From NCBI GenBank assembly GCA_016187335.1, contig JACPJW010000001.1, positions 404,170-468,169 of the forward strand: 64,000 nt of DNA. Direction: 5' to 3'. Below are positions 3,805 to 60,563 of the stretch, one piece after another; the stretch's first letter is position 1; each line of letters begins with the position of its first letter. Both the position numbers and the translations under genes were made by a program. Under the pieces are notes generated by a model, which saw only the letters and a program-made list of their open reading frames with translations, was not told the origin of the DNA and made no database searches. Source of the stretch: Candidatus Aenigmatarchaeota archaeon. Its GTDB lineage: Archaea; Aenigmatarchaeota; Aenigmatarchaeia; GW2011-AR5.

Positions 3805-4947
3805 TCACCTGAACTTTCTCAGCTGCCCGCTTTTCTTGGCGGCTTCGTGCCTTTGTACCTTCCCGTATTTTTTCTTTATTTCCCGTTCCAGCTTGCCCAG
3901 AACATCCTGCGCAACGTCAAGAGGCTTCCAGCCCATTGAGTGAGACACGAAAAGCCCCAGCGGCGTGCCTATTCTCGCGCGCATCACATAGCGGATTTTC
4001 TTATCGCCACCGCCATGGTCGTTCTGCCTCTCTACATGAACAAAGAGATATTGTACGCTGTCCATCATCCTCCCGATTTTCTGGACAAATCTTGTTGTTG
4101 CCTCGTCCACGCCGGCAATCAGTTCGCTGCTTTCGCCGTGAAGCCCAGTGACTTGCACGTAAACCTGTTTTTTAGGGCCTGAAACGAGCAGTTCAAGGAT
4201 ATCCTTTGGGGTTATTATTCCCGGCTCGCCGTTCATGACGATAACTTCTTCGCTTTTCTGCAGTAAGTCCAAAGCCCTTTCCAGAGGAGAGTTTTCTTTC
4301 AGTATGGCAGCAGCATGCATGAAAGATTCCACGCCAGCACTTTCAGTGGACATCTTTTCGCTGGCGCCCCGCTCCTTTGTTTTTCCTCTCATCTCCATTT
4401 TTTCTTTTCCTTCGAGCAGCTTTATCATGTCCAGCGTCCCTACGACCCCGAGAACCTTTTGGCCGTCGATAACAGGGACGCGCGATACGTTTTTGTTGAA
4501 CATGATTTTTTTGACTTTCCCGGCATTGTCACCTTTCGACACGCACTCACACTTGACAGCAATATCCCCGCAGGTTTTCTTCGTGTTCATCAGTTTTGAT
4601 GCAACCTTGACAACATCATATTCGGAAACAATACCCACCAGATTCCCTTTGTCCACAACAGGAACAGCCCTTAATCCCGTGTTCAGTAGGAGTTCTATGA
4701 TTTTCTGCAAGTCATGCTCCGGCGAAGCAGTGGAAGTGCTCGTTACGTAGTTCTCAACCTTTGTTGACTGTATGTCTATGTCCTTTGTAACAATGTTTTT
4801 CAATTCAAGCAGCCCGAGAACATTCTTCCCTTCAACGACAGGAAGCCGGTGGATATTGTATTTTTTCATCTTGGCCAATGCCGTGTTCAATGTGTCGCCC
4901 CTTCCGCAGGTTATCACGTTTCTGGTCATGATTTCGCTTACTTTCAT
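3805..4947 (-). CDS. CBS-domain protein (tandem CBS pairs plus C-terminal domain)
   Basis: 380 aa; repeated CBS-like segments (RLPVV, RAVPVVD, RVPVID with hydrophobic cores). Confidence 0.7.
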   Translation of the reverse strand: MKVSEIMTRNVITCGRGDTLNTALAKMKKYNIHRLPVVEGKNVLGLLELKNIVTKDIDIQSTKVENYVTSTSTASPEHDLQKIIELLLNTGLRAVPVVDKGNLVGIVSEYDVVKVASKLMNTKKTCGDIAVKCECVSKGDNAGKVKKIMFNKNVSRVPVIDGQKVLGVVGTLDMIKLLEGKEKMEMRGKTKERGASEKMSTESAGVESFMHAAAILKENSPLERALDLLQKSEEVIVMNGEPGIITPKDILELLVSGPKKQVYVQVTGLHGESSELIAGVDEATTRFVQKIGRMMDSVQYLFVHVERQNDHGGGDKKIRYVMRARIGTPLGLFVSHSMGWKPLDVAQDVLGKLEREIKKKYGKVQRHEAAKKSGQLRKFR

Positions 4948-4970
4948 GAAAACACCTAGGGTTTATGCCT

Positions 4971-4989
4971 TACTCTATAGAATAGAGTA
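4971..4989. promoter_or_regulatory. Perfect inverted repeat TACTCTAT-AGA-ATAGAGTA in divergent promoter region
   Basis: Lies between divergently transcribed CBS gene and DAHP synthase gene, next to A/T-rich TATA-like AAATAAATTTATA. Confidence 0.4.
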
Positions 4990-5054
4990 AATAAATTTAT
5001 ACAGATGAAATCTGGGAAAAATTTCTTTTTAAGGTTAATTGTTGTCGTTTATTT

Positions 5055-6335: not shown

Positions 6336-6944
6336 TCAAGGCTTATGTCTTGTAATAGCGTAGTAGGTCACGTCTCCTTCGTTATCCACAATCGCCCATA
6401 ACATCCTTGCTCGTATGTTGTGGGCAAGCCTGACAGAGCGCGAAAGTTCCTGGAACGACATGGTGAAATCCTCCGGCACCGAGAAAACTATCCATTTCGT
6501 GTGCTCTTTGGCGGATTTCGGCCCTTTCTTCAGCTGCACGCCCCTTTCATACACGCGGAAGTCGCAGCCGAACTTGAATCCTGTCCTGACAAGCAGCCCG
6601 CGCTCCCTGAGGTCTTCGTAAACGCGGTAGCGCTCCGTGAACCTTTTGTCCAGAGCAGAAGAATGCCTGAACAGCTCGTCGAATGTTATTTGTTTCTTGC
6701 TGCTGTCAAAGACCCTTATCCTGCCGCGCTTCAGCAGCAGGCACGCTTCTACCAGAGCCAGTTCAAGCCTGTCAGGAAGAATTTTGCCGTAATAGCCGGG
6801 CTCGTAAACGCTTTCAAAGTTTTTCCATGCAACTGCTTTGTTCTCTTCCAGCGTTGTATCCACAACTTCTTTGAAAGGCTCCGGCTCCACGTATTCCGGT
6901 CTATCCTCTTCAGAATCATGCTTTTTCTTGGACATTTTGAACAC
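6336..6944 (-). CDS. endA: tRNA-splicing endonuclease subunit
   Basis: 202 aa; GFKFGCDFRVYERG and EHTKW segments match the EndA catalytic-domain fold (Tyr/His/Lys region). Confidence 0.7.
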   Translation of the reverse strand: MFKMSKKKHDSEEDRPEYVEPEPFKEVVDTTLEENKAVAWKNFESVYEPGYYGKILPDRLELALVEACLLLKRGRIRVFDSSKKQITFDELFRHSSALDKRFTERYRVYEDLRERGLLVRTGFKFGCDFRVYERGVQLKKGPKSAKEHTKWIVFSVPEDFTMSFQELSRSVRLAHNIRARMLWAIVDNEGDVTYYAITRHKP

Positions 6945-7643: not shown

Positions 7644-7743
7644 TTCGCCGGGGCGATATTAATAGGTTGCCTTTAGAAAGCAGCAAAGAAAGCGTAATGC
7701 GGGTGTGATTTAACCCTTTTAGAAAAAGCGTCACGGAAAAAGA

Positions 7744-7980
7744 TGGGAAGGGAGGGATTTCCAGAACTTTTCATCGTTTTCCTCGAAGAACATCAGTTCT
7801 TCGGTATCTCGGAGAACTATCGTTCTCCGCAGATGATCGAACTTTTCTGAAAAGTTCGTTTGGACCCTCGACATTCCCGGCGTAGCACCAATCAAGTGCT
7901 ATGCTCCACGGTCTTCAGCCGTGTGCTCTCCCAGGCTTTGCCAACCGAAAAAATCATTCTCGGTTTTGAGCTACCTTCCC
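7744..7980 (-). tRNA. tRNA-Phe (anticodon GAA) with three putative introns (D-loop, variable loop, T-loop)
   Basis: Minus-strand acceptor GGGAAGG/CCTTCCC with discriminator A; D-stem GCTC/GAGC with AGCCUGGGA loop; anticodon arm CACGG-CUGAAGA-CCGTG; exons sum to about 73 nt; T-loop junction uncertain. Confidence 0.5.
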
Positions 7981-8399: not shown

Positions 8400-8402
8400 G
8401 AG

Positions 8403-8521
8403 CGCCCCGGGACGGACTCGAACCGTCGACCTTCTGCAATTAGTCAAGAAATCCAAAAACTTGCTTGACTGTTAACAGCCAGACGCTTTAGGCGTCTATC
8501 TACCTGCTGAGCTACCAGGGC
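8403..8521 (-). tRNA. tRNA, anticodon unresolved, with D-arm intron and a second 27-nt hairpin intron
   Basis: Minus-strand 5' GCCCTGG TAGCTCAGCAGGTAG and 3' GACGG-TTCGAGT-CCGTC-CCGGGGC-G; removing a 19-nt hairpin restores D-stem GAGC; two parses give 73-nt exons but neither yields a canonical anticodon loop. Confidence 0.5.
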
Positions 8522-9431: not shown

Positions 9432-12146
9432 TTAATCCAGGAAATCGCCCTTCTTCAGCTTATTAGGAAGGTAGGTCTCGGACATGAACTTAAGGCCGCG
9501 GTGCGACAAAGCTTCTATCTCGGCTTTTATTCCTTTTTCTATCATCAGGTTGATTTCCTTCTTCCATCTCGGGTTCTTGCTAAACCACTCGTAGTTGAGT
9601 AGTTCCTTCGCGCGCTTTATGTCAACTTCCTTGCATTTTATTGTCGCTTTTTTCAGGTCATACTCAAATATATCCGATATAGTAAGACCTATGTATCTGG
9701 CTTCCGGTGTCGCAATCCGATCTGAGACGTGAGCTAGGCTTATGGATCCGGATTTGATAACTGAATAAATATAGAAGCCGTACGAATCACTGTCGCAGCA
9801 TACATATACAGGCAGCTTGTGATCTTGGTTCAGCCTTTGTATCAGCAGCCTTGTTCCGCGTGATGGCTGCCCGCCTGTGCCGATCAAAACGCACTTCTGT
9901 TTCTGCCAGAACTTGTCCTCATGAAGCCGCTCAAAGCCTGCGTTCTTCTCCACGACCAAGACAAAGTCCGCGTTGACTTTTTTGAAATCTATTTCATCCA
10001 CGGTGCTCGGTATGGACCATCCCCCGCTTCCGAGCTTTGACCAGTCTATGCTGTCGCCGCGGTCTTCAATAATAACGTTGCCGGCGACAATGCCCTTTCT
10101 GTCGGTGGTGAGGTGCAATTGCTCGCGCAGAACGTCTATAGCCACTTCTATGTCAACAATTATAGGGTCAGAATTATGTAGAATTATAAATCCATTACCA
10201 CCAATGAAATTCTCAGTAGGTTCGACTGAAAGATCAACTGTATATTCAGGAGTTGGAGCGTCATTTATTTCAACTATCTTGTCCCACATAATGTCACTAT
10301 TAGCTATGGTTTCAAGTTCGGATACCAGCTGTAAATCTGGAGAATACTTTTGTAACTGCATCAAGGCGTTATATAACACAGGTCTGCTTATCGATTCGTT
10401 TTTATTTTCTATATAACTCCATGAAAAGTGGTTCCATTCAACACGATCCTTACAGGACTTTCTGACTTTTTCTACCAATTTCCCTATGTTTGGTATCCTG
10501 TCAGAAGATACGTCGTGTTTCCGCGGCTTACTGAATCTTTTATCATTGATTATTTCAGCCATCAATTTTACATCTTCTCTATTACCTATTCTAATTTCAT
10601 ATGCGTTATGGTGATTAGGATTTTGGACGCTTCTTTTATAGCGATAAATTCTTGCAAAAATTCCAAGCCTAAGCAGTAAAAATACCAATCCGTTAGCCAG
10701 CTTTTCGCTAGTTGTGTGGTACCTTAATCTAAATTTTGGAAGAAAAGTACTACCGTCTCCAAGCATAAACGAGAAAAGAAACATCTGTATACAATTTTCA
10801 GGTGAATCAAGCAAAACACGCGGTATTTCTTTATTCCATGCTCTGCAAGGCTTATACCCAATAACATAAGTCAATATGTGACTCAAAGTATCGTAACCTA
10901 CATTTAGCTTATAAACTCCATCTTTACCTAAACGTATCTTTCCGCTTACACAGCTTTTACCAAATGATTTTTCAAAGCAAATCATAAACTGCTTGAGAAG
11001 CTCTGAAGATTTGTTAGAAATAGCTACATGGTATGATTTTCGTGGTTCAAAAAGTGAATGCGAGCCTTCGCTCAAAAGAAGCCCTAGTACAAATCCTAAA
11101 TTTTCATCTTTTTTTATTAAAGCGTTGTAATAGTTCTTTGCACCCCTTCTTCCAATTTTTATTTTAGGAAGCAGATCTGAAATATCAATTCCGGTCGTTT
11201 TTACGACTTTAATTGGAATTGTTTTCCAGTTAATCCAGTTGGCTTTAACGTCAGACCATACATTCTTGTATCCGAAGTCATTTGAAATATTTTTTAGCTT
11301 ATCATTACCTATAAGCCTGATTATTTCTTTTATCGTGTCTTTATCCGATTTTATGTAAAATTCTTTTAATACACTTTCAGGGCAATTTTCAATAAGCTTT
11401 TCTAAAATATTTATATGATCAGAATTAACACCGACTTCTATTTTTCTTGGGATGGCTATCCAGTCTCCTATCTTTAGTTCTGATGTTTTTATGGATACAG
11501 GTTTTCCTTCAGAATTTGTAAACAAGCTGTGAGATTTAGTTACTTTGACACGCCTGCCACTTGATGTGATTATTTCCTTTACAATGTTAGGCGGGTGTTT
11601 CATTACCATCAGAACTTTCTGCTCCTTAATCCTGTAATTTTCATCGAAAGCGCAAACCTTAATGTCGCCAACTAAAATCTTCTTTTTATTACCATCATCA
11701 TAAATAATTCTCCCAAATTTTTCAGCATGGTCTACGACTTCGCTTGCTTGAGCTATTCTGAGTTCATCGTTTATTCTTACCAACAAAGGTTCATCGGGGC
11801 ATACAGACTCGCTCTGCTCGTCAAAGGTATTCTCGTTGCTGTCCGGCAGTGTCCTTTTCAGGTTGTAGTACATGTCTCGGATGCTGGCATGGATTTTCTC
11901 ATCAATGAGCGATTTACAGAAAGCACCGACCATAAGCGTCTGCATGAACTTCTTGGAGTGCGCGACGTTGAAGTAATACCTTTTTGCTGTCTTGGTGCCA
12001 AGCCTGAGCTGGCCGGTTTTCCTGTCGTAAACTACGTTGGAAAGAGCGCGTATTGGTATCTCTATGTTCGGGTTCTCGCCTTTCTCTATGTCATGCACGA
12101 CTTTCTTGCCCAGAACATTCAGTTCCTTTCTTACGTCTTTTTCCAT
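9432..12146 (-). CDS. top6A: DNA topoisomerase VI subunit A (Spo11-like) interrupted by an intein
   Basis: 904 aa; extein N-part (IPIRALSNVVYD...RDMYY) and C-part (WSKLGSGGWSIPS, Toprim LIGTGGQPSRGTR) match Top6A; central 543 aa has intein/LAGLIDADG blocks. Confidence 0.85.
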   Translation of the reverse strand: MEKDVRKELNVLGKKVVHDIEKGENPNIEIPIRALSNVVYDRKTGQLRLGTKTAKRYYFNVAHSKKFMQTLMVGAFCKSLIDEKIHASIRDMYYNLKRTLPDSNENTFDEQSESVCPDEPLLVRINDELRIAQASEVVDHAEKFGRIIYDDGNKKKILVGDIKVCAFDENYRIKEQKVLMVMKHPPNIVKEIITSSGRRVKVTKSHSLFTNSEGKPVSIKTSELKIGDWIAIPRKIEVGVNSDHINILEKLIENCPESVLKEFYIKSDKDTIKEIIRLIGNDKLKNISNDFGYKNVWSDVKANWINWKTIPIKVVKTTGIDISDLLPKIKIGRRGAKNYYNALIKKDENLGFVLGLLLSEGSHSLFEPRKSYHVAISNKSSELLKQFMICFEKSFGKSCVSGKIRLGKDGVYKLNVGYDTLSHILTYVIGYKPCRAWNKEIPRVLLDSPENCIQMFLFSFMLGDGSTFLPKFRLRYHTTSEKLANGLVFLLLRLGIFARIYRYKRSVQNPNHHNAYEIRIGNREDVKLMAEIINDKRFSKPRKHDVSSDRIPNIGKLVEKVRKSCKDRVEWNHFSWSYIENKNESISRPVLYNALMQLQKYSPDLQLVSELETIANSDIMWDKIVEINDAPTPEYTVDLSVEPTENFIGGNGFIILHNSDPIIVDIEVAIDVLREQLHLTTDRKGIVAGNVIIEDRGDSIDWSKLGSGGWSIPSTVDEIDFKKVNADFVLVVEKNAGFERLHEDKFWQKQKCVLIGTGGQPSRGTRLLIQRLNQDHKLPVYVCCDSDSYGFYIYSVIKSGSISLAHVSDRIATPEARYIGLTISDIFEYDLKKATIKCKEVDIKRAKELLNYEWFSKNPRWKKEINLMIEKGIKAEIEALSHRGLKFMSETYLPNKLKKGDFLD
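10173..11801 (-). mobile_element. Intein with LAGLIDADG homing-endonuclease domain inside top6A
   Basis: Begins with Cys after ...DEQSESV, block B GRRVKVTKSHSLFT, LAGLIDADG-like LGFVLGLLLSEGS and FLFSFMLGDGS, ends GFIILHN followed by Ser; region is A/T-rich relative to exteins. Confidence 0.7.
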
Positions 12147-28827: not shown

Positions 28828-28940
28828 GGGCTTGTAGTCTAGAGACCCTTTAGAAAAAGCGTCTACGAAAAGGGTTGGAAAATGGTTATGACGTCGCCTT
28901 CACACGGCGAAGGTCGGCGGTTCGAATCCGCCCGAGCCCA
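28828..28940 (+). tRNA. tRNA-Val (anticodon CAC) with 40-nt D-loop intron
   Basis: GGGCTTG-TA-GTCT-AG [intron 28843-28882] TGGTTA-TGAC-G-TCGCC-TTCACAC-GGCGA-AGGTC-GGCGG-TTCGAAT-CCGCC-CGAGCCC-A; exons sum to 73 nt. Confidence 0.8.
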
Positions 28941-33127: not shown

Positions 33128-34102
33128 ATGAAAGCCTTTGTCGTAAAATCGCCAATAGGCGTCTTCGCCTTCAGCGAAAGCGGCGAACTGGTTTACTACA
33201 GGGTATTCAGCAGCGATCCGCCAAAGGCGCTGCAGGAGTTTGAAAGCGTTATCGACAAAGACTTCATAGACGACCTGAAGGACTATGAATTAGCAGAAGA
33301 CAAGGGCGCGCAAATGATTCTCAGAAAGCACTTCCGGGAATATGCATTGTCTCTGGGCTTTGCAAAAAGCAGCGAGGAACTGAATAAATTTCTTTCTTCT
33401 TTTGCTGCGCTGCTCTCGCGCAAGAGGATGAAGCAGCAGATGAGTCGCGACAGGCTCATTATACAGGCATCCAACGCTTTGGAGGACATAAAGAAGACAG
33501 AAAACCTGCTTTCAGAGCGGTTCAGGGAATGGTACACCCTTCATTATCCCGAGCTGAAGAGCGTTAAAGCAGAAGATGTCATCAAATACGGCCCGCGCGA
33601 AGCGTTCCCCGATTTTAGGGAAAGCGTCGGCGTTGATCTGGCGGAAAACGATTTAGAAATAATCCTGGAGCAGGCAAAGACCCTGAAATCCGTGCAAGAG
33701 CACAGGAAAAGCCTGGAAAGGTATATCCGGAATGCCGCAAGGGAAGTGATGCCGAATTTTTCATCTCTTATTGAACCCTTTTTGGCAGCGCGCTTTCTTT
33801 CACTGGCCGGCTCTCTGGAAAAGCTGGCCAAGATGCCTGCCTCGACGCTGCAGCTGCTTGGCGCAGAGAAGGCCTTGTTCAGGCATCTCCGTGAGAAAGG
33901 AAAGTCGCCGAAATACGGCATCCTGTTTTTGGACACCCGCATCCATACTGCGCCTGACGAGCAAAGGGGCAAAATAGCCCGCGCCATATCGTCAAAACTT
34001 ATGCAGGCCGCGCGCATAGATTTTTACTCAGGCAGGGAAGAGCCGCGCCTGAAAGCAGAGCTTGGTCAAGAAATAAAGAAAATCAATGAGGAAAGGAAAT
34101 GA
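33128..34102 (+). CDS. nop5: Nop5 (Nop56/58) box C/D snoRNP protein
   Basis: 324 aa; NOSIC/Nop domain; immediately upstream of and overlapping fibrillarin. Confidence 0.8.
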   Translation: MKAFVVKSPIGVFAFSESGELVYYRVFSSDPPKALQEFESVIDKDFIDDLKDYELAEDKGAQMILRKHFREYALSLGFAKSSEELNKFLSSFAALLSRKRMKQQMSRDRLIIQASNALEDIKKTENLLSERFREWYTLHYPELKSVKAEDVIKYGPREAFPDFRESVGVDLAENDLEIILEQAKTLKSVQEHRKSLERYIRNAAREVMPNFSSLIEPFLAARFLSLAGSLEKLAKMPASTLQLLGAEKALFRHLREKGKSPKYGILFLDTRIHTAPDEQRGKIARAISSKLMQAARIDFYSGREEPRLKAELGQEIKKINEERK

Positions 34103-34749
34103 AAGAGATTTTTCCCGGCGTGTTCAGGTCAGGCAAAGACTTGCTTACTGTTAATTTAGTTCCCGGAAAGAGGGTCTACGGCGAAAAGCTGCTTGCCAAA
34201 GGCAGGCAGGAATTCAGGGAATGGGTCCCCCAGAGGAGCAAGCTTGCCGCAGCGATAATGAACGGGCTACAGAACATGCCGATGAAGCAGGGCAGCAGGA
34301 TACTCTATCTAGGCGCAGCATCAGGGACAACGCCGTCGCACGTGAGCGATATTGTTGGCCATGACGGAATTGTCTATGCCCTGGAATTCTCTGAACGCCC
34401 GTTCAGGTCACTGATAGAGCTGGCGCGAACCCGCAAGAACATTGCCCCGCTGCTTGCTGACGCGCGGAAGACAGAGGATTATTACTGGGTCGAGGCGTGC
34501 GACATTCTATATTGCGACATCGCGGACCCCCAGCAGACTGAGATTGCTATCCGCAATTTTGAAGAATTCATTGCCGAAGGTTTTCTTTTACTTTCAATAA
34601 AATCACAGAGCATCGACGTTGTCAAGGAGCCGCTGCGCGTTTACGAAGAGGAAAAAAGGAAATTAGAGAAAGCGGGATTTGACGTTCTTGAACTGATCGA
34701 CCTAGAGCCATACGAGGAAAAGCACTGCTTCATCGTAGCGAAGAAATAA
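34099..34749 (+). CDS. flpA: Fibrillarin (rRNA/tRNA 2'-O-methyltransferase)
   Basis: 216 aa; SAM-binding VLYLGAASGTTPSHVSD and conserved fibrillarin N-terminus. Confidence 0.9.
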   Translation: MKEIFPGVFRSGKDLLTVNLVPGKRVYGEKLLAKGRQEFREWVPQRSKLAAAIMNGLQNMPMKQGSRILYLGAASGTTPSHVSDIVGHDGIVYALEFSERPFRSLIELARTRKNIAPLLADARKTEDYYWVEACDILYCDIADPQQTEIAIRNFEEFIAEGFLLLSIKSQSIDVVKEPLRVYEEEKRKLEKAGFDVLELIDLEPYEEKHCFIVAKK

Positions 34750-35903: not shown

Positions 35904-38900
35904 TTACTTTATTTTCTTTATCTCTATACCTATTTTCCTGCCTTCAAAGTCCAGTTTTTCCCCTTCCGCCTTCGCGAACACGACCTTCGCCGCCCCCACT
36001 TCGTTCTTTATTTCTTTTTCCCATTTCTTCAGTTCCCCGGCCCCTTCTATTTTCAAGGCAATTTTGTCCATGACAACAAGCCCTGATTTCTTGCGCATAT
36101 CCTGCACTTTTCTGACAACCTCGCGGAGCAGGGCCTCTTTTTTCAGCTCGTCGGTGAGCAGCGTGTCCAGTTCCAGCTTGCCGCCGTCAAAGGGAACGCC
36201 ATTGTTCGTGTTTGCAAAAACAGCGGCTTTGACATTGCACATATTCTTTATTATTTCTGCAAAAGGCTTGAGATTCTCTTTGCTGTCCACTGTAAGCTTT
36301 GCCAGGGGCCACCTTATTTTTATGTTGCTTTCATGCCTTTGCGAGTTGGATGCTTCGACAAGGTTTTTTACGATATTCATGGCTTTCTCCGCCTTTGCGC
36401 TGATGTATTTTGAATCGTACTTAGGCCAGTCCCTGGTATGCACGGATTCCTTTTCGCCGAGGATTTCGAGGTTTATCTGCTCGGCGAGATACGGCGTTAT
36501 AGGCGCTAAAAGCTGCGATGTTTTTTCTGCTATCTCGTATAAGGTGTAAAAGGCCGCTTCCTTGTCTTTCCCTGAATACGCCGGCCATACGCGGTCCCGG
36601 ATCAGCTTTATGTACCACCTTGAAAAGTCGTTTACTAGGAAATCATGCAGCTCTGTTACGGCCTTGTGGCCGTTGTAGCTGCAGAAATGCTGGGTGCAGT
36701 TCTTTATGGTGGTGTTCAGGCGCGAAAGAATCCATTTGTCCTCTATATTCAGTTTTTTTGGCATTGAACCGCTTGACGCGTCGGTCTGTTTCGGTTTTGT
36801 TGCGTAGGTCTTCACGAAATTAAAGCTGTTTTCTATCACAATAAGAGACCTCGCAATGGCTTCAACGTCCGGCCACTTGAAGTAGAAGTCATCCCACGGC
36901 GCGCTTGACAGCAGATAGAAGCGAAGCACGTCCCGGCCGTATTTTTTTATAATGTCCTCCGGCTCGACAATATTTCCTTTGCTCTTTGACATTTTCACGC
37001 CGTGAGCGTCAAGTATGAAGCCGTGGAAAAGTATGTTCGTGAAGGGCTTCTCATCAAATGTTATTACCGACGTTATCAGCTCGGCGTTCCACCAGCCTCT
37101 GATTTGATCCGGGCCTTCTGTCTGGAAGTCGCTTGGCCACAGTTTCTTGAACAACGCCTTGTTTTTCGGGTAGCCGAGGGATGCCCATCCGGCAAGGCCG
37201 GCGTCAAACCAGACATCAAGGACATCGGCTATCCGTTTCATCGCAGAGCCGCACCTGCATTTCAAAAAAACGTTATCAATGTAAGGCCTGTGCAAATCAC
37301 GGGGTATTTCCGGCAATTCGTCAGCGGAGCCGATGACCTTGACGCTTTCGCATTTCTCGCATATCCATATCGGCAGCGGTATGCCCCAGTAGCGCTGCCT
37401 TGATATAGGCCAGTCGCCGAGGTTTTCAAGCCAGTTGTTGAACCGTTGCTTTGCCCATTCAGGGTACCAGTTCACATTCTTGTTTTCCTTGATGAGCTTG
37501 TCCCTTATCTTCGTCACGCGGAAGAACCACTGCGACACGGATATCAGCAGCAGGGGAGTGCTGCAGCGCCAGCATTGCGGGTAGTCGTGCGTTATCGTTT
37601 CCTCCTTCAGCAGCAGGTCTTTTTCCTTCAGCAGTTCAATTATTTTTTTGTCGCTTGCCTTGACAGGATTTCCAGCAAAAGCACCGCATTTCTCGTCAAA
37701 AGTGCCGTTGATTTTCACCGGAGATATTATGGGCAATTTGTTTTCCAGACCGACTTTGTAGTCCTCCTGTCCGTGCCCGGGGGCGGTGTGGACAAGCCCG
37801 GTGCCGTCTTCCATGCTCACGTACTGCTCTGAAAGCACAACCTTGTGCGCGCCTTTGAGCTGCTGCTGGAATGTAAAAATGTCCCGGAGCGGATGCTCGT
37901 ATTCTGTCCCAGCCAGCTTTTTTCCGGGAAACGTTTCCACAATGCTGAATGGCAGTCCGGCTTTCTTCATAACAGCTTCAAGAAGCGGCTTTGCCAGGAT
38001 AAGAAATTCAGTTCCACCAGAACTTTCCACCATTACCTTGACATATTCGTGCTTCGGATGCGCCATGATGCCTGTATTAGCTGGTAACGTCCACGGCGTT
38101 GTCGTCCATATGACCAGGAACACGTTTTCTTGTCCTTTCACCGGAAACTTAACATAAATAGAAGGGTCCTTGGCTTTGCTGTATTCTATTTCGTTGTACG
38201 CAACGGCTGTTTCGCAATTATGTGTCAAGAAGCCGTTAGTTATAAAGTTGTGATGAGTTTCAACTGCTATATCACATACTTTCCGTTTCCCCTTATATTT
38301 TATAGAATTTATTTCATCCCAAATAAATCCGTCTCTGAGGTCTTTTGCAGCATTTTTTAACCATGCATCGAATGCAGGGGTATATTTGGCAGCACGAACT
38401 GACTTAGACTTGCCATAAACCACATGCCTTACATAAAGTTCAGGTAAGTTAAGCATAATTGCGATTTTGCTGCAAGGGATCTTAGAATGTCTTAGTGATA
38501 AGATCCTACCTTTCAATTTTCTGTATTGTTTCTCAAGTGATTTTTTGTACAGAAGATAGCCCAAAACATGCGAAGCCCTGATTTTTCTGTATTTACAGTA
38601 CTCGTATCCTAAATACCGTATGAATTTAATGAGGTTGTAATCGTTGCAATCTATACTGATAGTGGTCTTCGATTTTTCTATTTTATTAACAATATTTCTT
38701 TCTGTTTTTATTTCTCCTGTCGATACCCCAAACTTATTGATAAGCGCGCATATCTGTTTTGCAAATTCCATCCCGTTTTCTTCTAGATGTCTATTTTTTG
38801 TAAGGTAAAGCCTCAGGCATTCAAATCCCTTTCCATATTTTCTGGGGCTTATTATCTGGAGTTCGCTTCCGAAGTAAGATGCCAAAAATTCCCTTGTTAA

Positions 38901-40421
38901 TTTTTTATTGGACTTTATCCATTTTGGCACAAATGTCTTTGTTTCCGTCTTTTTTCCTATAGGACAGCCTAGCGTTATAAGCAAAACAGCCAAAGACAAA
39001 GAATAACATCTCATGGATGTTGTAAATCCCTTTATTGCTCTGCCATTTACGACAGATTTAGTTGGCACGGTTGAAATATCCGAATGGCTAAAGCCAAGAA
39101 TCTTTAGGTCTTTTTGGATTTCTTTTAAATCTTCCTCTTTTCCGCAGAAATCTATGCCAAATACCGGGAATTTTCTGTTTTTAGATGTACGTACAACAAT
39201 AGATCCATCACCAAAAATATGACCTGCCAATCTGGCTAAAATAAATGATTTTGTAGATTTACTGTGAAGAGGTATCAGTTCTTTATCTTTCAATTCATTT
39301 ATTATAGAATCGTAGCGCGTAAACGTATTTACTTTTAAAATTTTTGCTACCCATGATTTTGAAACTCTTATTTTGAAGGCGTTTTGTATTTCTTTAATAA
39401 TTTTAGTATATGAATAGTTATTTTTTCTAAGTTCGGCAACAAAGTTCTTAATTTTAATTTTCGAATGACTTGTAAGGTCGTTAAATTTATGCAGATCTCT
39501 GAAAACTATATTTTCTAAGTTCTGCAAAGTAAACATTACATTATTCTCATTTACAAGAGCTTTGCCTGTTTCCGTAATTTCCGGCAGTCTGCTTTCCACA
39601 TTATTATATACGGCCACTTTGGTTCCTATTCTGAGCTTAGAAAGAGTCATCCATCCATCTTGCGTCCAGAACGGATGATCACTCGAAGCGATTAGTTTCT
39701 TTCCTGTTAGCGTTTTTACAAGAAATACATTATCTTCCAATTCCACATAGCCCAGAGGTTTTGCCGTAGTTAGAAGTTTAGAATTAGTATCAACAGCTAC
39801 AACCGTGTTGTGTTTCCAGCAGCCTTTCAGTTCTCCTATTTTTCTTGTTCCCCCTTCAACAAGAATAGTAGAATTAGGATCAACGCATCTCGGGCATACA
39901 TGCACCGGATAAAGACCCTTGTAGAGCAGTCCCTTGTCGTAAGCGGTCTTGAACGTGTGCCACGCGCCCTCTATGTACTCGTTGTTGTACGTTATGTAAG
40001 GGTTGTCCCAGTCCATCCACACGCCAAGATTCAGGAACTGGTTATTCATGACAGAAATGAACTGGCTGACGAACGCCCTGCATTCCTTGTTGAATCTCTC
40101 GACGCCTAGCCTTTCTATATCAGCCTTTGATTTTATCTCCAGTTTTTGCTCGACCTTGTTTTCTATCGGCAGCCCGTGGGTGTCGTAGCCCGGCTGGTCC
40201 CATACGTCGAAGCCGGACATGCGCCAGAATCGGATGTAGCTATCCTTCAATATTTTGTTCCAGGCAGTGCCTATGTGTATGTAGCCCGTGGCGTAAGGCG
40301 GGCCGTCAAGGAAGTAGAATTTCTTCTTTCCTTTTCTTTTTGTCTTGGCCTTCTGGTAAATGCCGTCTTTTGCCCAGAACTCGGCGATTTCTTCTTCTTT
40401 TTTCTTGCGGCTTTCTATCAT
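35904..40421 (-). CDS. ileS: Isoleucyl-tRNA synthetase interrupted by an intein
   Basis: 1505 aa; HIGH (YIHIGT), KMSKS (KMSKSKGN), WPISRQRYWGIPLP; 557-aa insertion between CPR and CETA of the zinc-binding region. Confidence 0.9.
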   Translation of the reverse strand: MIESRKKKEEEIAEFWAKDGIYQKAKTKRKGKKKFYFLDGPPYATGYIHIGTAWNKILKDSYIRFWRMSGFDVWDQPGYDTHGLPIENKVEQKLEIKSKADIERLGVERFNKECRAFVSQFISVMNNQFLNLGVWMDWDNPYITYNNEYIEGAWHTFKTAYDKGLLYKGLYPVHVCPRCVDPNSTILVEGGTRKIGELKGCWKHNTVVAVDTNSKLLTTAKPLGYVELEDNVFLVKTLTGKKLIASSDHPFWTQDGWMTLSKLRIGTKVAVYNNVESRLPEITETGKALVNENNVMFTLQNLENIVFRDLHKFNDLTSHSKIKIKNFVAELRKNNYSYTKIIKEIQNAFKIRVSKSWVAKILKVNTFTRYDSIINELKDKELIPLHSKSTKSFILARLAGHIFGDGSIVVRTSKNRKFPVFGIDFCGKEEDLKEIQKDLKILGFSHSDISTVPTKSVVNGRAIKGFTTSMRCYSLSLAVLLITLGCPIGKKTETKTFVPKWIKSNKKLTREFLASYFGSELQIISPRKYGKGFECLRLYLTKNRHLEENGMEFAKQICALINKFGVSTGEIKTERNIVNKIEKSKTTISIDCNDYNLIKFIRYLGYEYCKYRKIRASHVLGYLLYKKSLEKQYRKLKGRILSLRHSKIPCSKIAIMLNLPELYVRHVVYGKSKSVRAAKYTPAFDAWLKNAAKDLRDGFIWDEINSIKYKGKRKVCDIAVETHHNFITNGFLTHNCETAVAYNEIEYSKAKDPSIYVKFPVKGQENVFLVIWTTTPWTLPANTGIMAHPKHEYVKVMVESSGGTEFLILAKPLLEAVMKKAGLPFSIVETFPGKKLAGTEYEHPLRDIFTFQQQLKGAHKVVLSEQYVSMEDGTGLVHTAPGHGQEDYKVGLENKLPIISPVKINGTFDEKCGAFAGNPVKASDKKIIELLKEKDLLLKEETITHDYPQCWRCSTPLLLISVSQWFFRVTKIRDKLIKENKNVNWYPEWAKQRFNNWLENLGDWPISRQRYWGIPLPIWICEKCESVKVIGSADELPEIPRDLHRPYIDNVFLKCRCGSAMKRIADVLDVWFDAGLAGWASLGYPKNKALFKKLWPSDFQTEGPDQIRGWWNAELITSVITFDEKPFTNILFHGFILDAHGVKMSKSKGNIVEPEDIIKKYGRDVLRFYLLSSAPWDDFYFKWPDVEAIARSLIVIENSFNFVKTYATKPKQTDASSGSMPKKLNIEDKWILSRLNTTIKNCTQHFCSYNGHKAVTELHDFLVNDFSRWYIKLIRDRVWPAYSGKDKEAAFYTLYEIAEKTSQLLAPITPYLAEQINLEILGEKESVHTRDWPKYDSKYISAKAEKAMNIVKNLVEASNSQRHESNIKIRWPLAKLTVDSKENLKPFAEIIKNMCNVKAAVFANTNNGVPFDGGKLELDTLLTDELKKEALLREVVRKVQDMRKKSGLVVMDKIALKIEGAGELKKWEKEIKNEVGAAKVVFAKAEGEKLDFEGRKIGIEIKKIK
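38217..39887 (-). mobile_element. Intein with LAGLIDADG homing-endonuclease domain inside ileS
   Basis: Starts CVDPNSTILVEGG, contains ILARLAGHIFGDGSI, ends FLTHN followed by Cys; A/T-rich relative to exteins. Confidence 0.7.
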
Positions 40422-41195: not shown

Positions 41196-41330
41196 GGCCG
41201 CCATGGTGTAGAAAGCCCTTTTTGACGCTTCGCTTATCAAAAAGCGCTTGCGGAAATAATTAGGGTTTGCAAATTGGTAGCATCGGAGCCTGTGGAGCTC
41301 CTTGGCTGGGTTCGAATCCCAGTGGCGGCC
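41196..41330 (+). tRNA. tRNA-His (anticodon GUG) with encoded G-1 and 63-nt D-loop intron
   Basis: G-1 plus GCCGCCA, D-stem GTGT/GCAT, D-loop AG [intron 41212-41274] TGGTA, anticodon arm GGAGC-CTGTGGA-GCTCC, T-arm CTGGG-TTCGAAT-CCCAG, acceptor TGGCGGC, discriminator C. Confidence 0.8.
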
Positions 41331-41360
41331 CTAAATTATTGTTATGATTAAGAAAATAAT

Positions 41361-50465: not shown

Positions 50466-51163
50466 ACCCAAACCCCCAGCAATGAGCCGATAAGGAAGCC
50501 TGTCAATGCCGCTGCCATCCCGACCAAGGACATCTCTATTCCGCTCTTCCACCATGTGCCCAGAGTCATCTTCGCCTTGACGGAGCCGGCGATGAACAAA
50601 GTGATAGTTGAAATTATTACGGAAACAATTATAGCATCCTTTATCGGTATGAAGAAGAAAGGCAGCAGCGGTATCAGCGAGCCGATGATAGCTGAGAATC
50701 CTACGACGAATGCGCTTTTTGTCGGGTTCTCAGAGTCCTCAGGCGATACGTGAAGTTCCTCTGTCATCATCGTGTCCAGCCACACCTTCTTGTCGGACGT
50801 GATTTTGTCCACTATTTTTTTCAGCGGGGCGCCGCGGAATCCTTTCCTGTAATAAATGTCGCGAATTTCCTTCCTTTCGACATGCGGCAGTTCCCTTATC
50901 TCCTTCATCTCCCTTTCCTTTTCGCTTTTGTAGAAATCCCTGCTTGCCTTGAAGGACGTGTAAGCGACAGCTGCCATGGAAATGCTCTCCGCAAAGGTGG
51001 CGGCAATGCCGGCAATAATGACTATTCTGGCGTCCTGCACGGCTGTCGCGACACCGAGAATGATTCCCAGAACATTGACGAGGCCGTCCTGCCCGCCGAG
51101 GATGAAGTCGCGCAGCGTAGAGCCGCTCTTGTGCATTTCCCTGTGAACGTCTGCTGACGACAT
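50462..51163 (-). CDS. VIT1/CCC1-family membrane protein (iron/manganese transporter-like)
   Basis: 233 aa; GGQDGLVNVLGIILG N-terminal helix, central cytoplasmic segment, C-terminal TM helices. Confidence 0.7.
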   Translation of the reverse strand: MSSADVHREMHKSGSTLRDFILGGQDGLVNVLGIILGVATAVQDARIVIIAGIAATFAESISMAAVAYTSFKASRDFYKSEKEREMKEIRELPHVERKEIRDIYYRKGFRGAPLKKIVDKITSDKKVWLDTMMTEELHVSPEDSENPTKSAFVVGFSAIIGSLIPLLPFFFIPIKDAIIVSVIISTITLFIAGSVKAKMTLGTWWKSGIEMSLVGMAAALTGFLIGSLLGVWV

Positions 51164-51228
51164 GGTTTTCTCTTGGCGAAAACGTGATTTAAAGATTTTA
51201 GTTGAGTTTTAGTGTAGCATTAGTTCAT

Positions 51229-51492
51229 GCGCCCGTAGCTCAGCTTGGCAAACTTTGCTACTCCAAAGTTTGATCAAAAGAGGTCTGTGACGAAGTTTGA
51301 GCAAATAGAGCACTTCTCTCCTAGAGGTGAATTGAGCGCAACGGAAGACTGAAGTTTCTGAAGAAACTTCAGCCGGTTTTGTGCGATGATAATTTCCTGA
51401 AGTGAGGAAGGGGCCGCGCGTTCGAATGCACCCTTTCTTGGAAAGAAAGCGTGCACGGAAAGAAAAGGGTGCCGAATATCGCGCCGGGCGCG
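51229..51492 (+). tRNA. tRNA-Arg (anticodon CCU) with three introns
   Basis: Exons GCGCCCG-TA-GCTC-AGCTTGG / TAGAGC-A-CTTCT-CTCCTA / A-GGAAG-GGGCC-GCGCG-TTCGAAT / CGCGC-CGGGCGC-G; introns about 51249-51305, 51324-51404, 51428-51479; exons sum to 74 nt. Confidence 0.8.
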
Positions 51493-51495
51493 CTT

Positions 51496-51798
51496 ATGTT
51501 CCATTACAGAGATCCGATAAGGGAAATAGCGGAAGAAGACGGATATTTCCTCACCGAGACAGCCGAAGGTATGAATCTTGCCTTGAAGACAATCTTAGGC
51601 TTTGCAAGCATAATACTCAGGGAACTGGAAGGGGGGAAATGTTATGTAAAAATAGTACTTGAGCCTCCTAGAGGTTTATCAAGGACAGCCGAAGAAATTT
51701 TTGAAAGTCCTTATTCCGCGGCCGGATATGTTGCAAAATGGATGTGCGGACCTATCTATACGGATCTGGTTCAAGAAGTTGAGGCGTTAATTCTCTAA
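51496..51798 (+). CDS. Hypothetical protein
   Basis: Start taken at MFHYRDPIRE because the track ORF overlaps the tRNA-Arg 3' exon. Confidence 0.4.
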   Translation: MFHYRDPIREIAEEDGYFLTETAEGMNLALKTILGFASIILRELEGGKCYVKIVLEPPRGLSRTAEEIFESPYSAAGYVAKWMCGPIYTDLVQEVEALIL

Positions 51799-51832
51799 TC
51801 TTTATATTCCGCCTTCGCACAAAAGATTCATT

Positions 51833-56404: not shown

Positions 56405-56509
56405 GCCGGCGTCGCATAATCTGGTGGTGCACTGATTGCATGCGAAGCAAGTGTATGTCTCGAAAACCAGCGGGCTCTGCCCATGCAGGTTCAAATCCTG
56501 CCGCCGGCG
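56405..56509 (+). tRNA. tRNA, anticodon unresolved, probably intron-containing
   Basis: Acceptor GCCGGCG/CGCCGGC with discriminator G; T-arm GCAGG-TTCAAAT-CCTGC; internal 73 nt could not be folded into a unique cloverleaf. Confidence 0.5.
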
Positions 56510-56513
56510 CTTT

Positions 56514-57022: not shown

Positions 57023-57282
57023 GCCGGGATACCGAAATCAGGTCTCTCAAGATAAGAGTGAAGAAATTCACGATGATTGCCTTTCATTGGTAAACGGGCC
57101 AGTGCAGTTCCGCTTCAAAGAAGCGGTGCGGCCAACCTTGAGAGCTGGTGCGCCTTCGGCGCGTGGGGGTTCAAAGCACCCTTTCTTTTTGCAAAAGAAA
57201 GCGTGCGCGGAAAGAAAAGCAACTTTTCAGAAAAGTTGCATCAAAAATAAAGGAAAGGGCTGTGAAATTCCCTCTCCCGGCG
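57023..57282 (+). tRNA. Class II tRNA, tentatively tRNA-Ser (UGA), with three putative introns
   Basis: Acceptor GCCGGGA/TCCCGGC, discriminator G; anticodon arm CCAGT [intron] CTTGAGA-GCTGG; variable arm GCGCC-TTC-GGCGC; T-arm GGGGG-TTCAAA [~93-nt intron] T-CCCTC; exons sum to about 87 nt. Confidence 0.5.
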
Positions 57283-59484: not shown

Positions 59485-59665
59485 GCGATGGTAGTCTAGG
59501 AACCCTTTTTCTCGTTGCGCTCGAAAAAGCGTTCACGGAAAATGGGTTGGAAGATGGTAGGATACAACCTTGCCAACGGCCCTTTTCAAAAAGCGCCGGC
59601 GGAAAATGCAAACAGGTTGAGAGGCGAAAGCCCGACAAACCCGGGTTCAAATCCCGGCCGTCGCA
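59485..59665 (+). tRNA. tRNA-Gly (anticodon GCC) with D-loop, anticodon-loop and variable-region introns
   Basis: GCGATGG-TA-GTCT-AG [intron] TGGTA-GGAT-A-CAACC-TTGCCA [intron] A-GGTTG ... CCGGG-TTCAAAT-CCCGG-CCGTCGC-A; exons sum to about 72 nt. Confidence 0.6.
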
Positions 59666-60291: not shown

Positions 60292-60563
60292 GCGGCCGTC
60301 GCCAAGAGGCCCTTTTTAGAAAAAAGCGTCTACGGAAAAACTAAAAAGCGTCTGGAAATCTGGTCAAAGGCGCGGGTTTCACTTGAGTGTTGATGCGCAA
60401 GCAGGTGAAAGCGTAACTCAAGGCAGCTGACGAGGCTGACGCACTTCGTGCGTCATGCTGTTTGATATCCCGTCGGTTAGTCCGTTCGGCGGTTCGAATG
60501 CACCCTTTCTTAGAAAGAAAGCGTGCACGGAAAGAAATGGTGCCGAAAATCCGCCCGGCCGCA
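60292..60563 (+). tRNA. Class II tRNA, probably tRNA-Leu, with three introns (anticodon unresolved)
   Basis: GCGGCCG-TC-GCC-AAG [53-nt intron] CTGGTCAAA-GGC matches the tRNA-Leu D-arm; T-arm GGCGG-TTCGAAT [51-nt intron] CCGCC-CGGCCGC-A; a third ~83-nt intron in the anticodon region gives 85-nt exons. Confidence 0.55.

Follow-up and report, generated by a model that had tools for sequence, protein, structure and literature searches.

We are highly confident that positions 51229-51492 on the forward strand of the 64,000-nucleotide stretch of DNA analysed here (the window) form a functional tRNA-Arg(CCU) gene with three introns of 56, 81 and 52 nt, all of the protein-spliced bulge-helix-bulge (BHB) type. 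The host is a Candidatus Aenigmatarchaeota (DPANN) archaeon. The introns interrupt the tRNA at 19/20 (between G19 and A20), at the canonical position 37/38 and at 59/60, and splicing yields a 75-nt product, GCGCCCGUAGCUCAGCUUGGAUAGAGCACUUCUCUCCUAAGGAAGGGGCCGCGCGUUCGAAUCGCGCCGGGCGCG, which ARAGORN calls tRNA-Arg(cct). With three introns, noncanonical sites included, the gene is a multiple-intron tRNA gene in the sense of SPLITS and tRNAscan-SE 2.0, that is, one with at least two BHB introns of which at least one occupies a noncanonical position. An earlier note on this DNA had proposed a single tRNA-Arg(CCU), cut in the D-loop, at 37/38 and in the T-loop, at exactly these coordinates. Both the coordinates (GCGCCCG at the start of the segment, CGGGCGC plus G at its end) and the reading stand, the latter on the strength of BHB motifs at the three sites, conserved exons beside divergent introns, and compensatory changes.

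Structure of the gene and its product

The four exons, like all features below on the + strand unless stated otherwise, are collinear inside 264 nt, which rules out a split or permuted tRNA. Exon 1 (GCGCCCGTAGCTCAGCTTGG, 51229-51248) supplies the 5' strand of the acceptor stem, U8 and A9, the 5' strand of the D stem and the D-loop as far as G19. Exon 2 (51305-51323) continues with A20, U20a and A21, the 3' strand of the D stem, A26, the 5' strand of the anticodon stem and the anticodon loop to A37, and contains the anticodon CCT at 51320-51322. Exon 3 (51405-51426) comprises A38, the 3' strand of the anticodon stem, the variable loop, the 5' strand of the T stem and the T-loop to A59, and exon 4 (51479-51492) adds U60, the 3' strands of the T and acceptor stems and the discriminator G73. 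Joined, the exons form a canonical cloverleaf, and we class the insertions as BHB introns; the conserved bases U8, A14, G18 G19, A20 and U33 and the T-loop UUCGAAU are all present. The stems had been described as Watson-Crick paired throughout, which fails at one place, pair 31-39 of the anticodon stem being U.G in the ARAGORN structure. CCA is not encoded, the bases after exon 4 being CTTATG. The exons have a G+C content of 66.7%, the introns 43.9% and the window 46.4%.

Upstream of the gene, a putative archaeal TATA box (TTTAAAGA, 51188-51195) lies approximately 34-41 nt before tRNA position 1, and GATTTAAAG(A/G)TTT is kept at the matching upstream place in two orthologues (L123 and L148). 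Its sequence suggests that it would serve as the promoter element of the gene.

Intron junctions and their BHB geometry

For every junction we required a 4-bp central helix with a 3-nt bulge on each side and a cut after the second bulge nucleotide, flanked by an inner helix within the intron and an outer helix within the exons, and every register near the proposed junctions was tested. The rule is validated within our data set by the canonical introns of two orthologous genes, L140 and L166, for which perfect motifs were found together with the right product.

Intron 1 (51249-51304, 56 nt) lies in the D-loop at 19/20 in a strict BHB motif, with the central helix G-C, C-G, U-A and U.G, the bulges GG|C and AA|A, and an inner helix of 8 bp. 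This strict motif exists only in the 56-nt register. The earlier note had read a 57-nt intron (51249-51305) instead, leaving a 74-nt tRNA with the D-loop AGCUUGGUA and without A20, the arginine identity base. The 74-mer is accepted by ARAGORN as tRNA-Arg(cct), and to that extent the earlier product stands up. However, the 57-nt register offers no BHB motif, since only two of the four central-helix pairs form and the inner helix is absent. It is also at odds with other tRNA-Arg genes. A contig scan with the 5' exon GCGCCCGTAGCTCAGYYTGG gave, among the matches listed, mostly bacterial tRNA-Arg genes, and of the tRNA-Arg genes among those matches that share this 5' exon and are uninterrupted, 110 of 110 have A after the GG, which the 57-nt register would drop; tRNA-Lys genes in the same comparison continue GG-UAGAGC, again among the matches listed. 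Finally, the 57-nt register contradicts the GGAUAGAGC that is found in every orthologue and is unbroken in L162 and L148. We therefore consider the longer D-loop intron very improbable. The 56-nt intron keeps A20, and thus the mature tRNA-Arg(CCU) is 75 nt long rather than 74.

Intron 2 (51324-51404) has the length and position that had been assigned to it, 81 nt at the canonical 37/38, and the BHB geometry fits these boundaries. Its central helix consists of C-G, U-A, CxA and C-G, so that three of four positions are paired and C34.A is the single mismatch; the bulges are UA|G and UG|A, the inner helix is AGG/CCU, and the 5-bp anticodon stem serves as the outer helix. The same geometry is repeated in L123, L148 and L162. 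Intron 3 (51427-51478), in the T-loop at 59/60, has a perfect BHB with the central helix UUCG/CGAA, the bulges AA|U and UA|U, a 9-bp inner helix and the 5-bp T stem as outer helix. Here the length of 52 nt and the product are those given previously, but the motif shifts the intron one nucleotide to the left of the boundaries first noted. All three introns thus have a BHB motif, strict in the first, with one mismatch in the second and perfect in the third. Self-splicing introns of group I or group II would be recognized by a match to a ribozyme core and a size of hundreds of nucleotides; they were rejected because the introns measure only 52-81 nt and a permissive Rfam search (E<=10) of 50900-51800 returned no relevant match.

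Conserved exons and divergent introns in orthologous genes

Orthologues from other metagenomes were obtained through a homologue of VIT1, the divergently oriented gene upstream of the tRNA, on a Logan contig (L123), and through a metagenome scan with exon 3 (all others). The exons of these orthologues are 93-99% identical to those of the window, and the introns vary in sequence, length, presence and position. L123 is a syntenic contig whose VIT1 is 82% identical to that of the window. Its mature tRNA (4745-5030, - strand) matches ours at 74 of 75 positions (98.7%), with exon 1 identical and, in the intergenic alignment, one variable-loop base as the sole exon difference, whereas the introns are 54-65% identical with indels. 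L123 has four interruptions, at 20a/21, 29/30 (28 nt, perfect BHB), 37/38 and 59/60. L131, with a precursor of 442 nt, likewise has four, at 15/16, 20a/21 (where a 7-nt micro-exon, TTTGGAT, is left), 37/38 and 59/60. L148, also syntenic, has introns at 29/30, 37/38 and 59/60 and an intact D-arm; L162 has introns at 37/38 and 59/60, L128 at 19/20 and 37/38, and L140, L149 and L166 a single one at 37/38. The orthologues thus carry from one to four introns and use six positions in a single tRNA, and together with the window locus they make up a natural series in which introns are gained, are lost and slide. No simple BHB is seen for the inserts at 37/38 in L131 and L128, which are possibly nested. 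Contigs L001, L002, L124 and L125, found through exact VIT1 or 445-aa proteins, contain too little of the tRNA region to be informative, and the VIT1 locus of L126 and L127, from a more distant Aenigmatarchaeota relative, lacks synteny with the window.

These genes also confirm how the exons are joined. L162 carries GCTCAGCTTGGATAGAGCACTTCTCTCCTA unbroken, which is window exon 1 joined exactly to exon 2, and GCTCAG(C)TTGGATAGAGCACTTCTCTCCTA is uninterrupted in both L162 and L148. All complete spliced orthologue products are called tRNA-Arg(cct) by ARAGORN. The exon 3 scan also retrieved uninterrupted bacterial tRNA-Arg(CCU) genes that match the predicted spliced product almost base for base, and the exon 3 22-mer, with C47 or U47, occurs in such genes. 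Paired positions change in concert. Acceptor pair 3-70 covaries among the orthologues as G-C, C-G and U-A. A compensatory difference separates the intron 3 inner helices of the window (GCACCC/GGGTGC) and L123 (CAGCCC/GGGTTG), and another is seen in the central helix of the 19/20 intron, where the window has C16-G and L128 has U16-A. Within the window, the 59/60 introns of tRNA-Arg and tRNA-Ser have the central helices UUCG/CGAA and UUCA/UGAA, respectively.

The observation that standard finders (ARAGORN, Rfam) see nothing at 51229-51492 could be taken to mean that the locus is a decaying pseudogene, namely a tRNA-Arg broken by three insertions and devoid of a working product. Decay would not be expected to preserve the exons while the introns diverge freely, nor to produce the compensatory changes seen in the stems and in the helices formed between exons and introns, nor to leave every insertion in a BHB motif. 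Moreover, all the other tRNA genes that were detected in the window are likewise interrupted. AGG is the commonest arginine codon in the 21 Pfam-supported window genes, where it accounts for 39% of Arg codons, indicating that a tRNA-Arg(CCU) is needed. We regard a pseudogene as highly unlikely, and a functional gene as the reading to follow.

Detection, chance and folding

The poor performance of the finders is not confined to this gene. ARAGORN reports no tRNA in the whole 64-kb window, and none in 51229-51492 even with its intron search switched on, and Rfam at gathering thresholds reports three tRNAs elsewhere in the window and none at this locus. Elsewhere in the window these tools also miss or misplace most tRNA genes; for example, the Rfam match at 28872-28940 aligns a tRNA-Val gene only in part and in the wrong place. 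Automatic annotation of this Aenigmatarchaeota genome would thus give a badly incomplete tRNA set, which could pass for dependence on a host.

A scanner that excises strict BHB candidates before running ARAGORN finds the gene at 51229-51492 with exactly 51249-51304 and 51427-51478 removed. Over the whole window it finds six interrupted tRNA loci, whereas five dinucleotide-shuffled control windows gave none. Under relaxed BHB rules with the acceptor stem and T-arm held fixed, 18,099 alternative splicings of 51229-51492 pass ARAGORN, so that a cloverleaf obtained after removal of segments is weak evidence when taken alone. It is the BHB geometry together with the orthologues that singles out the right splicing. 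This relaxed, exhaustive search gave thousands of ARAGORN-acceptable products and singled out none at three further loci (59485-59665, 60292-60563 and 7647-7882).

The tRNA-Arg(CCU) precursor folds better than its shuffles (z = -3.5), and the acceptor stem is present in the minimum-energy fold, as are the BHB motifs of introns 2 and 3. Because the BHB conformer of intron 1 is not the minimum-energy one, folding energies do not decide where the junction of intron 1 lies. In place of that conformer the minimum-energy fold pairs GAGC of the intron with GCUC of the D stem, which is 3.3 kcal/mol more stable locally. Were intron 1 cut in this conformer, after the manner of a 15/16 intron, the product would lack CUUGG, or else splicing would have to proceed in an obligatory order. 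A 15/16 intron with just this central helix, GCUC/GAGC, exists in L131. In the window, however, the conformer has no inner helix, and its product would be without the conserved G18 G19 and would match no orthologue, which makes cleavage there extremely unlikely and leaves the 56-nt intron at 19/20 in place. That the region codes for protein has a practically negligible chance of being right: although ORFs exist mechanically at 51274-51504 (-), 51402-51662 (+) and 51451-51798 (+), none of the three has a Pfam match, conservation tracks the tRNA exons and not codons, the orthologues are full of indels, and a 100-aa ORF downstream (51496-51798) is absent from L123.

A family of related introns in different tRNA genes

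Nine copies of one intron family, with the core CCCUUU..AAAGCG-N4-CGGAAA..GGG, are present in the tRNA genes of the window, and intron 3 is one of them. In intron 3 the core AAAGCGTGCACGGAAA lies at 51446-51461. Eight strict occurrences of the core were counted in the window where 0.02 would be expected, and all eight are on the + strand and inside tRNA genes; the ninth copy is a variant in tRNA-Val. The copies are found at 7725-7739, 28843-28880, 41213-41273, 51427-51478, 57176-57268, 59500-59552, 59578-59620, 60309-60362 and 60499-60549 (all +) and are spread over at least seven tRNA genes, where they occupy 15/16 (Val, His, Glu), the D-loop, and 59/60 (Arg, Ser and the gene at 60.3-60.6 kb), with 37/38 added by L140. 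Intron 3 and the copy at 60499-60549 have nearly the same sequence. The apical motif of the family matches no Rfam family. Related introns in different genes and at different positions imply that the family has transposed, a result that covers intron 3 and not introns 1 and 2.

A further case links the window to an orthologue. The window tRNA-His intron at 41213-41273 (15/16) is almost identical to the D-loop intron of L123 tRNA-Arg (4949-5008, - strand), which sits at 20a/21, and the D-loop intron of the window tRNA-Arg is 54% identical to this L123 counterpart and lies 2 nt away from it. These alignments suggest that an intron was replaced, or moved from one gene to another, and that the junction slid as well. 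Most likely, the multi-intron state of tRNA-Arg(CCU) arose by the spread of BHB introns between tRNA genes.

A hairpin and a K-turn-like module in intron 2

Intron 2 contains, as previously described, the 10-bp hairpin CTGAAGTTTC-TGAA-GAAACTTCAG (51349-51372). The hairpin is absent from the orthologous introns of L123, L148 and L162 and, judging by them, is dispensable. A K-turn-like module of the form ..UGA-hairpin-GAUGA.. spans 51334-51389, and four orthologues keep this module in their canonical tRNA-Arg intron, with a hairpin that varies in sequence while its pairing stays; next to the tandem G.A pairs, L162 has G-C in place of A-U. The D-loop intron of a tRNA-Ser holds a compact K-turn-like copy as well, at 57056-57076. 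The module could be a candidate L7Ae site. Because the window shows no enrichment of the pattern GA-hairpin-GAUGA (20 matches versus 11.3 expected), we keep the module as a lead only.

Euryarchaeal pre-tRNA-Trp is an example of an intron-encoded box C/D guide RNA. Such an RNA should have a C box (RUGAUGA) and a D box (CUGA) with guide spacers of approximately 12 nt, or else a match to a C/D family. In intron 2, GCGAUGA is followed by CUGA only 7 nt on, with no guide-length spacer, and no C/D Rfam match falls inside the tRNA-Arg gene; a box C/D guide RNA was therefore rejected. Elsewhere in the window, Nop5 and fibrillarin are encoded by an adjacent gene pair (33128-34749, +), which indicates that the organism has box C/D RNP machinery and hence presumably L7Ae.

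It is conceivable, though we think it rather unlikely, that the AAAGCG-N4-CGGAAA motif and the K-turn-like element are sites for a dedicated factor, such as L7Ae or a mobility or processing protein, or that they mark excised intron RNAs, possibly circular, with a function of their own. If so, they would provide a concrete handle on the unsolved mechanism by which archaeal tRNA introns transpose.

Splicing machinery and proposed pathway

The window itself encodes a tRNA-splicing endonuclease (EndA), a single alpha-type unit of 202 aa (6336-6944, - strand; Pfam PF02778 and PF01974), which would be the enzyme expected to cut the three introns. Among solved structures, 1a79 (M. jannaschii alpha4) and 3iey_A (N. 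equitans alpha) come nearest. Six inserted residues, KKGPKS, precede the catalytic His; N. equitans and ARMAN-2 have this insertion too, and M. jannaschii does not. Kaneta et al. (PMC5829648) associate DPANN EndAs that have an extra loop with raised tRNA disruption, and place the L3 loop 'in the C-terminus region'; the insertion here is at most a candidate for L3. No RtcB-type ligase was found among the 43 window ORFs scanned with Pfam.

We propose that transcription starts downstream of the putative TATA box at 51188-51195 and that the precursor, of at least 264 nt, would fold so that each exon-intron boundary takes the form of a bulge-helix-bulge. The window EndA (6336-6944, -) would then cut both 3-nt bulges of each motif, and an RtcB-type ligase would presumably join the four exons. 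RNase P and RNase Z would trim the ends and CCA would be added post-transcriptionally; ligation, end trimming and CCA addition are all modelled on established archaeal tRNA processing. From the sequence we infer that the three introns are excised in the cell, as well as the order of their removal.

Comparison with known systems

Multi-intron tRNAs, genes with four introns and intron transposition are already published, in Thermoproteales, ARMAN-2 and Asgard archaea, and the tRNA-Arg(CCU) gene changes no current concepts. The closest parallel is found in the multi-intron tRNA genes of Thermoproteales such as Pyrobaculum calidifontis and Thermofilum pendens (Sugahara 2007/2008, as cited in PMC4033280 and PMC8450103); these reviews put the maximum for archaeal tRNA genes at three introns per gene. 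The likeness lies in several BHB introns per gene, up to three, at canonical and noncanonical sites alike. It extends to related introns across tRNA genes, which in Thermoproteales were read as intron transposition (Fujishima 2010, as cited in PMC4033280), a signature also seen in the intron family of the window. In contrast to those Crenarchaeota, the host here belongs to DPANN (Aenigmatarchaeota), and the intron family differs in sequence. The endonucleases differ as well, the Thermoproteales enzyme being an (alpha-beta)2 with the crenarchaeal loop, whereas the window encodes a single alpha-type EndA with an N. equitans-like insertion, although a beta subunit may be encoded elsewhere.

ARMAN-2 (Micrarchaeota) and other DPANN archaea share the superphylum and have introns at 59/60, a known noncanonical tRNA intron site (PMC3239211), and at other noncanonical positions (PMC3239211, PMC5829648). 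These papers also tie a high fraction of disrupted genes to extra-loop EndA variants and describe incomplete tRNA sets from standard tools. The ARMAN-2 enzyme differs, being a three-unit epsilon2 protein, as against the single alpha-type unit of the window. Neither paper analyses Aenigmatarchaeota, the text consulted contains no three-intron tRNA or intron family for DPANN, and in the literature searched we found no description of tRNA introns in Aenigmatarchaeota.

In the Asgard Atabeyarchaeia and Freyarchaeia, which belong to a different superphylum from the DPANN host, 92-95% of tRNA genes are interrupted and more than half of them are multi-intron (PMC11291895). Four-intron tRNAs are listed there, e.g. 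Freyarchaeia Arg-TCT and Ile2-CAT (PMC11291895, Supplementary Data 4). Against the maximum of three given in the reviews, the four-intron orthologues L123 and L131 might have been taken to exceed what is published; that table refutes the idea, and they are not a record. The same three-arm arrangement of BHB-type introns is also known from a red alga tRNA, but this is a eukaryote with a eukaryotic endonuclease and the likeness is unrelated by descent. What the locus offers is material, in the form of an intron family, an EndA gene and an orthologue series, on the spread of archaeal tRNA introns and on the broadening of endonuclease specificity in DPANN.

Other interrupted tRNA genes and neighbouring genes

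The earlier note had called tRNA-Arg(CCU) the cleanest multi-intron example in the window. This is roughly true, yet tRNA-Ser(UGA) (57023-57282, +) is equally clean and also has three introns, at 57040-57087, 57103-57135 (approximately 31/32) and 57176-57268 (59/60). Its spliced product is 86 nt long; the anticodon arm is perfect and the variable arm long. The remaining genes comprise tRNA-Leu(UAA) (8402-8521, - strand, interrupted), tRNA-Val(CAC) (28828-28940, +, intron 28844-28881), tRNA-His(GUG) (41197-41331, +, intron 41213-41273) and tRNA-Ser(CGA) (56405-56510, +), with a 22-nt canonical intron. A Glu-like tRNA gene (59485-59665, +) has at least two family introns, and two more tRNA genes (60292-60563 and 7647-7882, both +) have at least two introns each.

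The 100-aa ORF at 51496-51798 (+) starts 4 nt past tRNA-Arg(CCU) and is identical to MBI2578603.1 (HYW26_02730). This protein is an orphan: among 5.8 billion clustered proteins only itself was found, and an exact look-up gave no contig that carries it. The segment of approximately 300 nt that contains the ORF is missing from syntenic L123. The window also encodes a thermosome. Two of its genes carry inteins, namely that of Topo VI subunit A (9432-12146, -), whose intein has a LAGLIDADG domain, and that of a class I (Ile-type) aminoacyl-tRNA synthetase (35904-40421, -). Together with the tRNA introns, the two inteins indicate a genome rich in intervening sequences at both the protein and the RNA level.
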